Shown here piece by piece: positions 12,181 through 45,007 of a stretch of DNA of 64,000 nucleotides. The notes under the pieces were generated by a model, which saw only the letters and a list, made by a program, of their open reading frames with translations, was not told where the DNA came from and made no database searches. The DNA lies in the IMG/VR virus record IMGVR_UViG_3300023084_000009, positions 1 to 64,000 of that record. One strand, written 5' to 3'. Position numbers and translations under genes: made by a program. How positions within the stretch are numbered: the first letter of the stretch is position 1; each line of letters starts with the position of its first letter. This stretch comes from a virus.

Positions 12181-12202
12181 AGTTTTGTCTTATTTATTTT
12201 TA

Positions 12203-12287
12203 TAGGACGAGAGGGACTTGAACCCTCACGAGCGTAATGCTCAACAGATTTTAAGTCTGGTGTGTCTACCAATTCCACCACCGTCCC
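12203..12287 (-). tRNA. trnL: tRNA-Leu(UAA), CCA not encoded
   Basis: GGGACGG/TCGTCCT acceptor, GGAATTGGTAGAC D-arm, CT-TAA-AA anticodon loop, long variable arm, GGTTCAAGTCC T-arm. Confidence 0.95.
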
Positions 12288-12290
12288 AGG

Positions 12291-12363
12291 TGCTCCTTGC
12301 GTGGATCGAACACGCCTCAGGCGAATTATGAGTTCGCTGCATTCACCAGATTGCTAAAGGAGC
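12291..12363 (-). tRNA. tRNA with CAU anticodon (elongator Met or lysidine-type Ile2)
   Basis: GCTCCTT/AAGGAGC acceptor, GCGAA-CTCATAA-TTCGC anticodon arm, GTTCGATCC T-loop; paired 1:72 argues against an initiator. Confidence 0.9.
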
Positions 12364-12387
12364 ATTCGCTATTCGCAAATAGCGAAT
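12364..12387. repeat. 24-nt palindrome ATTCGCTATT-CGCA-AATAGCGAAT, copy 1
   Basis: Perfect 10-bp inverted repeat; identical to 44938-44961. Confidence 0.95.
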
Positions 12388-12458
12388 AGGAGTACTGGGA
12401 GTTGAACCCAGACTACCCCGTTATAAGCAGGGCGCTCTAACCATTAAGCTATACTCCC
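12387..12458 (-). tRNA. trnI: tRNA-Ile(UAU), CCA not encoded
   Basis: GGGAGTA/TACTCCT acceptor, TAGCTTAATGGTTAGAGC D-arm, CCCTG-CTTATAA-CGGGG anticodon arm, GGTTCAACTCC T-arm. Confidence 0.93.
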
Positions 12459-12881: not shown

Positions 12882-12936
12882 ATATTATAGGGCATCCGCG
12901 ATGGGGTGTCAACTGTGCCGATTATGGAACTGGTCA
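12882..12936 (-). promoter_or_regulatory. Sigma70-like early promoter for the tRNA operon
   Basis: Minus strand GACCAGTTCCATAATCGGCACAG-TTGACA-N17-TATATAAT. Confidence 0.6.
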
Positions 12937-44705: not shown

Positions 44706-44900
44706 TCAGTCGTTTGCGTCCTGTGCTTCAAAACACTTAGGGTCTGTATGTTCCATCCAATGGATGTAGATATCAGCCTTTTCAAAAGGAGTGAAGAGAG
44801 TTGTCTCATCTAATCCTTGCTTCAACCATTTCAAATCTTCACAGCGAAGATAATTCTCCACTGGGACATGACTAAAAAAGATGAGTGCTAATGATAACAT
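44706..44900 (-). CDS. 64-aa ORF nested inside the riboswitch
   Basis: ATG follows CGTTCATCCT; last codons (AQDAND-stop) are the aptamer 3' strand; hydrophobic N-terminus and two Cys. Confidence 0.7.
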   Translation of the reverse strand: MLSLALIFFSHVPVENYLRCEDLKWLKQGLDETTLFTPFEKADIYIHWMEHTDPKCFEAQDAND

Positions 44901-44937
44901 AGGATGAACGCTCCGTTCCGCGACTTACTTGCGTCCT

Positions 44938-44961
44938 ATTCGCTATTCGCAAATAGCGAAT
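44938..44961. repeat. 24-nt palindrome, copy 2
   Basis: Identical to 12364-12387. Confidence 0.95.
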
Positions 44962-44978
44962 GGGATGAACGTAAGGGT

Positions 44979-45007
44979 ATTATACCCCTAATGTGAGTAT
45001 TTATCAA
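44979..45007 (-). promoter_or_regulatory. Sigma70 promoter of the riboswitch operon (contains a late ATAAATA as well)
   Basis: TTGATA-N17-TATAAT ending 7 nt before the aptamer. Confidence 0.75.

Follow-up and report, generated by a model that had tools for sequence, protein, structure and literature searches.

The DNA described here comprises positions 1 to 64,000 of the IMG/VR virus record IMGVR_UViG_3300023084_000009 and is referred to below as the window. It contains a 24-nucleotide palindrome, ATTCGCTATTCGCAAATAGCGAAT, which is present twice in exact form and in the same orientation, once in a tRNA gene cluster and once in a riboswitch-like leader. This palindrome belongs to T4-like cyanophages (Kyanoviridae), where it is a hairpin cassette, optional and of low copy number, that riboswitch P2 stems and tRNA spacers share in many cyanomyovirus genera. 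The same sequence is found at the promoter of PDC-M21, a bacterial operon, and the phage copies may be retained as mimics of that site.

Features of the Two Loci

The two copies and the features around them are listed in Table 1. The sequence given above is that of the + strand, and both RNAs that carry it are encoded on the minus strand. An initial annotation of the window had described the first copy as the entire spacer between tRNA-Ile and a tRNA with a CAU anticodon, and the second as the distal P2 hairpin of a riboswitch. ARAGORN and Rfam confirm the first placement, and Rfam alignments confirm the second. The first copy takes in the discriminator base of tRNA-Ile and reaches base -1 of tRNA-Met. 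The second is nested within P2 as UCCCA[22 nt]UAGGA.

Table 1. Palindrome copies and neighboring features, in window coordinates.
Feature	Position	Strand	Basis and remarks
tRNA-Leu(UAA)	12202..12288	-	ARAGORN and Rfam, 53.8 bits; final tRNA of the cluster
tRNA-Met(CAU)	12289..12363	-	ARAGORN and Rfam, 52.5 bits; begins directly after the palindrome
Palindrome copy 1	12364..12387	-	Exact match; independent 10-11-bp hairpin between two cloverleaves
tRNA-Ile(UAU)	12387..12458	-	ARAGORN and Rfam, 68.6 bits; the palindrome starts with its discriminator A
Phd/YefM-like orphan antitoxin open reading frame (ORF), 57 codons	12468..12641	-	PF02604, E 2e-05, 24.7 bits, below the 29.8-bit cut-off
Sigma-70-type promoter-like site TTGACA-17-TATAAT	12884..12912	-	Consensus scan only, 12/12 matches
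64-codon ORF under the predicted control of the leader	44706..44900	-	ORF list; AUG directly after the aptamer
Glutamine-riboswitch-like aptamer	about 44907..44974	-	Core CGUUCA...ACGCAAGUA...GGAACG; sub-gathering Rfam scores
Palindrome copy 2	44938..44961	-	Exact match and Rfam alignments; distal P2; predicted fold -14.8 kcal/mol
Promoter-like site TTGATA-17-TATAAT	44979..45007	-	Consensus scan, 11/12 matches; directly upstream of the aptamer

Sequence and Fold of the Palindrome

The identity between the two sites ends exactly at the edges of the 24-mer, where the flanking bases are C and A at the first site and T and G at the second. No exact 24-mer match was obtained in 100 dinucleotide-preserving shuffles of the window (0/100). 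The exact-match scan and the shuffles thus bear out the earlier description of one palindrome, in one orientation, between unrelated flanks. The whole 94-kb record, that of a T4-like cyanophage, contains just these two copies. At each site the opposite strand differs from the 24-mer at the two central loop bases only.

In the RNA sense the hairpin reads AUUCGCUAUU-UGCG-AAUAGCGAAU, with a predicted ∆G of -10.5 to -11.4 kcal/mol. Read directly from the sequence, it is a perfect 10-base-pair stem that contains neither GTAG nor CTAC. No terminator-like site was found at either palindrome locus, and an intrinsic terminator was rejected because no U-tract follows the stem at either of them.

Distribution among Phages

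As the initial annotation had proposed, copies were counted genome-wide and across cyanomyoviruses. IMG/VR was scanned for the pattern TTCGCTATT-N4-AATAGCGAA, and the exact arms are present in at least 119 contigs, where about one is expected by chance (an estimate that assumes roughly 6e10 bases). Among the matches listed there are 121 sites, the two window copies included. Riboswitch P2 stems account for 96, tRNA ends for 15, and other locations for 10. The tRNA-end sites listed start at, or one base past, the discriminator base of the upstream tRNA, which is Ile-UAU, Ile-GAU, or Ala-UGC; the downstream tRNA is Met, Asn, or Leu. The 10 other sites consist of five intergenic sites, three in coding sequence (a number consistent with chance), one at an M21 locus, and one on another GC-rich contig, ahead of a small ORF. 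The identical palindrome occurs in at least six unrelated flanking contexts.

Searches of phage isolates matched 59 records, 54 of which are cyanophages. The palindrome adjoins tRNA-Ala in Syn9, S-RIM8, S-RSM4, S-WAM2, S-RIM32, S-RIM50, S-RIM4, and S-H9-1, and in S-PM2 a tandem riboswitch has it as P2 of its second aptamer. Five complete cyanophage genomes have one or two copies each, with up to three mismatches allowed. The sharing of one fixed hairpin by riboswitch P2 stems and tRNA spacers stands even without any link to an operator, and it involves well-studied phages (S-PM2, Syn9, S-RSM4, and S-RIM8). No paper was found in the literature searched that describes the motif in cyanophages or links it to them.

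Filled and Empty Sites

In S-WAM2, S-RSM4, S-RIM32, S-RIM8, and S-WAM1, the orthologous riboswitch shares its core and the gene behind it with the window, but P2 is short and of the ordinary kind; the length of the P2 tip differs among orthologues. Three samples were drawn independently of the palindrome, from riboswitch cores, tRNA-Ala 3' ends, and tRNA-Met 5' flanks; the figures that follow refer to the matches listed. Among 119 contigs with riboswitch cores, 14 are exact carriers that were already known, and 11 of the other 105 contain variants. The remaining contigs have short UCCC-loop-GGGA stems. At the tRNA-Ala 3' ends (119 contigs), the palindrome is present in at least two, and the others have different small hairpins or none. 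The 5' flanks of tRNA-Met of the window type (120 sites) include three exact copies and five variants. Most of these flanks consist of tRNA-Ile followed by a 2-4-nucleotide spacer without a hairpin, and some of the tRNA-Ile 3' ends are identical to that of the window. The comparison of filled with empty orthologous sites, also proposed in the initial annotation, therefore yields presence/absence differences at riboswitches and tRNA junctions alike. A required tRNA-processing signal was rejected because the hairpin is absent from the majority of orthologous junctions of the Ile-Met and Ala-X types.

The variants retain pairing. Compensatory changes give the arms TTTGCTATT/AATAGCAAA, which occur in both contexts, as well as TTCGTTATT/AATAACGAA and TTCTCTATT/AATAGAGAA. 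Single substitutions mostly leave a sense-strand G-U at the changed pair, and the one exception merely widens the loop. The palindrome evolves as a paired helix at riboswitch, tRNA-spacer, and intergenic sites. Independent placements have brought these 22-24 bases to sites that can accommodate one more RNA helix without harm, namely P2 tips, spacers behind the discriminator base, and a few intergenic spots.

The loop differs between the two main contexts. The sense-strand loop is CGCA in 56 and UGCG in 4 of the 96 riboswitch copies listed, and it is UGCG in 10 of the 15 tRNA-site copies listed. The window riboswitch copy has the UGCG loop and is nested in an otherwise ordinary P2, an arrangement found in just two of the 96 copies, the window included. 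Because of this tRNA-type loop and the nesting, the copy is probably a separate, later (secondary) copy of the tRNA-type version. Such a secondary copy and the large number of unrelated flanks speak for repeated placement of one sequence. Repeated placement of a passive sequence would in turn suggest selection for its presence.

The stem was also considered as what remains when P2 arms collapse after the loss of an ORF nested between them. This was rejected because a search of 3.7 Mb of phage loci found no split arms in riboswitch context. Two matches with split arms (loci L030 and L038), the only ones, consist of a solitary arm that pairs incidentally with an intact hairpin about 0.5 kb away.

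Several further elements were observed near tRNA genes. At one locus (L452), the place of the palindrome behind tRNA-Ala is taken by a shorter form, TTCGCGAATAGCGAA, which has seven bases fewer and may be a deletion derivative or a precursor. At five others (L480, L410, L441, L474, and L493), a small hairpin, UUCCC-GAAA-GGGAA, lies 3' of tRNA-Ala and is close to the ordinary P2 sequence UCCC-GAAA-GGGA. The sharing of hairpins between tRNA trailers and riboswitch P2 stems may be more general. A conserved element of about 42 nucleotides, GGGGGAGUACAAAAGAUCUGUAUUUUAGAAACAGCGCCCCC, lies directly 3' of tRNA-Ala in many cyanophage contigs, among them nine loci (L397, L489, L392, L417, L406, L440, L424, L475, and L481), and in Syn9 it follows the palindrome (L379:650-700). 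It forms a long hairpin or a mini-tRNA-like structure. At the single locus where this region was run through ARAGORN (L113, the Syn9 record), no tRNA was called adjoining the palindrome on that side. A tRNA-like 3' end, ...GAGGCTGGGTAAATCCTCCA, precedes the palindrome and tRNA-Met at L027, L045, and L104 and in several of the tRNA-Met flanks, without an ARAGORN tRNA call.

The Predicted PDC-M21 Operator in Bacteria

The pattern TTCGCTATT-N4-AATAGCGAA was also used to scan one genome per prokaryotic species. At least 120 bacterial loci match, where about nine are expected by chance (596 Gb / 4^18). Those listed are very diverse and include Rhodocyclaceae, Burkholderiales, Xanthomonadales, Acidobacteriota, Verrucomicrobiota, and Cyanobium. 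The center is CGCG in 85 of the 120 copies listed. A gene homologous to that for M21A, a protein of about 181 residues, is directed away from the palindrome at 91 of the 120 loci, mostly starting within about 100 nucleotides, and one for a partner of about 236 residues (M21B) follows at 78. PADLOC identifies the two as PDC-M21A (8.5e-41) and PDC-M21B (1.1e-63); PDC-M21, an AbiE/MenAT-like pair, is a candidate defense system in PADLOC-DB v2. No paper mentioning PDC-M21 was found in the literature searched, and the name is absent from the main text of the PADLOC preprint.

The M21A model (mean predicted local distance difference test score, pLDDT, 92) opens with a winged helix at its N terminus that resembles those by which MarR, DtxR, ArsR, and IclR bind DNA. 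These matches are weak but consistent, and a weak Pfam match to MarR_2 agrees with them. No fold match was obtained for the C-terminal domain of M21A. For the M21B model (pLDDT 94.5), the best Foldseek match is MenT1 of Mycobacterium tuberculosis (8an5 and 8an4, E 1e-6 to 1e-5), followed by MenT3/TglT. A profile of M21B against the PDB gave 5uvd (8.7e-4) and 8an4 (0.083). Neither M21A nor M21B gave a significant match in sequence searches of Pfam, NCBIfam, and the PDB, and the profile and fold comparisons alone were informative.

Promoter-like sequence overlaps or adjoins the palindrome at the bacterial loci. Of 90 loci listed, 27 have a TATATT hexamer resembling a -10 element across the left edge of the palindrome, and 43 have ATATT there. 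A TTGnCA -35 hexamer is often found 17 nucleotides upstream of TATATT, and at other loci a TTGACA promoter follows closely behind the palindrome. Because of this overlapping or adjoining position, the bacterial palindrome is read as an operator that works as DNA, and not as an RNA hairpin, with predicted binding by M21A. Action as DNA is also indicated by the unequal half-sites of many cyanobacterial copies, which would pair poorly as RNA. M21A is the putative binder on account of the position of the palindrome at its operon and of its predicted winged helix-turn-helix fold.

Both window copies are the exact inverted repeat of the PDC-M21 promoter, as judged against the 120 bacterial loci listed and 25 cyanobacterial loci. 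The phage centers CGCA/TGCG (75 copies listed) and TGCA (12 copies) are one or two transitions from the bacterial CGCG. At one bacterial locus, in a metagenome-assembled genome of Candidatus Competibacter (L129:5323-5350), four tandem TAGCGAA heptamers follow the operator; the operator half-site itself is therefore built from a 7-base repeat unit.

PDC-M21 in the Host Family and in Phages

M21A was found in 27 of 301 sampled genomes of the host family Cyanobiaceae, and all 27 genomes are 1.9-4.0 Mb in size. The named carriers are Cyanobium species and one brackish-water Synechococcus. In all 25 cyanobacterial loci that were fetched, the palindrome lies 30-55 nucleotides upstream of the conserved N-terminal motif with zero to three mismatches, and its half-sites are often unequal. 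With at most one mismatch, the 301 genomes contain nine sites, all at M21 loci; none was found in a riboswitch or a tRNA spacer. Host riboswitches and tRNA spacers were accordingly rejected as the source of the phage palindrome.

In IMG/VR a single M21A match was obtained, on a GC-rich contig that is not a cyanophage (IMGVR_UViG_3300046558_000408, GC 0.62; L062 and L618). This contig has a complete M21A gene and the exact operator, so PDC-M21 can travel on viral or prophage DNA.

Possible Operator Mimicry and Its Alternatives

We favor, with a probability of roughly 0.4, the reading that the phage copies are retained because they mimic the PDC-M21 operator, serving as decoys or titration sites that bind a protein of the M21A type. 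Two comparisons of sequence suggest it: the match to the operator is base for base, including spacing and type of center, and the phage loops lie one or two transitions from CGCG. The repeated placement of one passive sequence, with the selection that it suggests, is a third point in favor. On this reading the palindrome recurs because it is the consensus operator of a host operon that encodes a winged-helix protein (M21A) and a predicted MenT1-like nucleotidyltransferase toxin (M21B). The perfect-consensus site on replicating phage DNA would bind host M21A, and this binding would perturb control of the toxin module. Riboswitches and tRNA spacers would serve as mere safe harbors for the operator copy. 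The binding could help the phage or could be what the host system senses. The narrower proposal, that a perfect-consensus copy hidden in hairpin-tolerant RNA genes titrates or captures a winged-helix repressor or antitoxin during infection, is given a somewhat lower probability. The setting is suggestive, with an M21B that resembles toxins acting on tRNA ends on one side and an orphan Phd-like antitoxin in the same operon as a window copy on the other. Cyanophages are thought to carry orphan antitoxins against host toxin-antitoxin modules (PMC9964418).

A number of observations weigh against operator mimicry. No M21A homologue was found in the record, in phage isolates (tblastn), or in cyanophage contigs (two IMG/VR scans). 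Any binder would therefore be host-encoded, and an operator serving a phage-encoded M21A was rejected on the same result. Within the host family, M21A is present in about 9% of the sampled genomes, mostly the larger ones, which look more freshwater or brackish than marine, and many of the phages with the palindrome are marine. The copy number per genome is just one or two, and 54 cyanophage isolate records have the palindrome as against 367 records that match the riboswitch-gene region. In the unselected samples, about half of the palindrome-like copies depart from the consensus by compensatory or sense-strand G-U changes. Such pairing-preserving variants fit selection on an RNA helix and not on operator sequence. 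Template-switch symmetrization of quasi-palindromes, reportedly classical T4 biology going back to Ripley in 1982, could also produce the compensatory pattern. The benefit to a phage of titrating an autorepressor or antitoxin is not obvious. The chance that a half-site of 9-12 bases matches some bacterial operator family is estimated at well under 1%, for a comparison that was made post hoc. Finally, M21A is a predicted binder of the phage palindrome, and PDC-M21 is itself a candidate for a defense system.

The main rival, which is a serious possibility, is that the hairpin is a cassette without function, either selfish or neutral. Its identity with the operator would then be due to chance or would be the relic of a captured scrap of host promoter. 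Such a cassette would pass between T4-like cyanophages that infect the same cell, through illegitimate recombination or template switching, survive where a helix is tolerated, and drift under pairing constraints. This agrees with its optional presence at every orthologous site examined, its low copy number, the variable length of the P2 tip among orthologues, and the compensatory and sense-strand G-U changes by which variants keep pairing. The other phage tRNA trailers, with unrelated small hairpins or none, agree as well. Quasi-palindromes in T4 are reportedly made symmetrical by template switching. Comparable repetitive, hairpin-forming elements invade RNA genes and spacers in sponge mitochondria (PMC2800124). 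The palindrome is, however, a passive sequence of 22-24 bases without means of copying itself, and yet it occurs between at least six unrelated sets of flanks with no transposase or nuclease linked to it. Nor would a functionless cassette explain why the palindrome agrees at every base with an operator confined, in the host family, to PDC-M21.

An RNA-level signal is improbable as the main explanation. RNase P and RNase Z would cut the hairpin out of the tRNA precursor, or the riboswitch would display it, and an RNA-binding protein or nuclease of the phage or the host would bind it for processing, for stability, or as a decoy RNA. Both copies lie in units with strong sigma-70-type promoter-like sites, the predicted hairpin is stable (-10.5 to -11.4 kcal/mol), and the pairing is kept in variants. 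At the tRNA sites listed, the hairpin always begins at, or one base past, the discriminator base. MenT toxins act on tRNA 3' ends, and since the M21B model resembles MenT, a minihelix decoy is conceivable. The sequence and orientation of the loop are not conserved, however, with CGCA, UGCG, UGCA, UCCG, and others present in both contexts, and most orthologous tRNA junctions and riboswitches function without the hairpin. The stem is not a terminator, for lack of a U-tract, and at 10 base pairs it is short for RNase III. Nor would an RNA signal account for identity with a DNA operator that in bacteria is at most partly transcribed. The initial annotation had offered a shared processing or protein-binding signal as one of two interpretations. 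The processing part, taken as a requirement, does not hold because most orthologous sites are empty, and the protein-binding part is favored at the level of DNA by the identity with PDC-M21.

Its other interpretation, a miniature mobile palindrome like the repetitive extragenic palindromic (REP) sequences, fares differently in its two halves. The insert-like presence and absence and the several unrelated contexts agree with it, and the likeness to REP sequences does not stand. There are one or two copies per genome, and no Y1 transposase of the REP-associated tyrosine transposase (RAYT) type was found: PF01797 has no match in the record, which is about 44% complete, and does match control genomes. 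A linked HUH/RAYT or HNH nuclease, which the annotation had suggested looking for, was likewise not found, the only HNH domain being about 45 kb from the nearer copy. It lies outside the window, in an open frame of 130 residues (PF01844, E 1.4e-12; G000:C1:89981-90106, minus strand). A REP/RAYT or nuclease-linked mobile element was rejected on these grounds.

A chance duplicate in one genome, without wider meaning, is practically excluded: the record does have two copies only, but 0 of 100 shuffles match, and at least 119 phage contigs and 54 cyanophage isolate records carry the palindrome in the same two contexts.

If operator mimicry is correct, this would be, to our knowledge, the first case of a phage opposing, or being sensed by, a toxin-antitoxin-type defense through its DNA operator and not through protein or RNA. 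It would also provide a 24-base-pair duplex ligand for PDC-M21, a predicted operator for its regulator, and natural pairs of filled and empty phages.

Neighboring Genes and the Riboswitch Leader

Behind the TTGACA-17-TATAAT site, the order of the tRNA unit is a DUF7294 ORF, the Phd-like ORF, tRNA-Ile, the palindrome, tRNA-Met, and tRNA-Leu. The Phd/YefM-like ORF lies directly upstream of tRNA-Ile in the same transcription unit. Its product was considered as a binder of the palindrome and rejected, because S-TIM5 and S-SM2 have a similar gene beside the same tRNAs and the palindrome is absent there. Neither phage is among the isolates that carry the palindrome.

The aptamer at the second locus scores below the Rfam gathering thresholds, with 18.1 against 33 bits for RF01704 and 17.4 against 35 bits for RF01739. 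It is called a riboswitch because of its conserved core and its orthology with other cyanophage leaders, and it is a predicted, glutamine-riboswitch-like element with putative glutamine binding. Six orthologues agree fully in the core CGUUCA ... ACG(C/G)AAGUA ... GGAACG, compensatory changes accompany the variation of P2, and the position is that of a 5' leader. Orthologues without the P2 insert still score 28.5 against 33 bits, so the insert explains only part of the shortfall in the window; the S-PM2 aptamer scores 33.3 against 35 bits. By pushing glutamine riboswitches further under the Rfam cut-offs, the insert matters for annotation. Worth recording separately is that cyanophage glutamine-riboswitch leaders (L122, L375, and L380, from S-WAM2, S-RSM4, and S-PM2) are below gathering even without the insert and will therefore be missed by standard annotation.

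The position of TTGATA-17-TATAAT puts the palindrome about 10 to 35 bases into the transcript. A TATAAT-like -10 box is aligned in the orthologues; it is TATAAT in four of six sequences and TATACT in S-WAM1, and S-RIM8 has none there. The N-terminal coding sequence of the 64-codon ORF is kept in orthologues, and no Pfam family matched the ORF.

Comparison with Known Systems

Like REP sequences and REPINs with their RAYTs, the palindrome is short and extragenic, occupies several sites, and differs in presence between genomes. Unlike them, it has one or two copies instead of tens to hundreds, no RAYT, no GTAG or CTAC motif, and a perfect instead of an imperfect stem.

Rickettsia palindromic elements are hairpin-forming insertion elements. 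Together with the hairpin elements of sponge mitochondria they represent small palindromes of compact genomes. Like the cyanophage palindrome, these survive at places, RNA genes and tRNA spacers among them, where the gene product can accommodate them. Those elements are longer, multi-copy, and degenerate, whereas here a single sequence of 22-24 bases is present at very low copy in many phage genera.

With respect to the glutamine riboswitches (glnA RNA, RF01739, and Glutamine-II, RF01704), the palindrome occupies a hairpin slot of variable length and leaves the conserved core intact. The ordinary P2 in this slot is a short, freely varying UCCC-loop-GGGA stem, in contrast to the fixed sequence of the palindrome stem, which is common to tRNA spacers.

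The PDC-M21 operator and the phage palindrome have TTCGCTATT-N4-AATAGCGAA in identical form, usually with flanking A and T and a [C/T]GC[G/A] center. They differ in setting. The bacterial site overlaps or adjoins an operon promoter as DNA, whereas the phage sites lie inside transcribed RNA genes without an M21 operon.

Phages are also known to mimic the cis-elements of defense systems, with pseudo-ToxI RNA repeats and with RNA anti-CRISPRs, which are solitary repeat units. The likeness lies in a phage copy of the recognition sequence of a defense system. Pseudo-ToxI repeats and RNA anti-CRISPRs act as RNA on RNA-binding defense proteins, whereas the palindrome would act as a DNA operator for a winged-helix repressor. 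We know of no described case of a DNA-operator mimic of such a repressor, and the cyanophage palindrome, if it is one, would be the DNA counterpart of RNA anti-CRISPRs and pseudo-ToxI.

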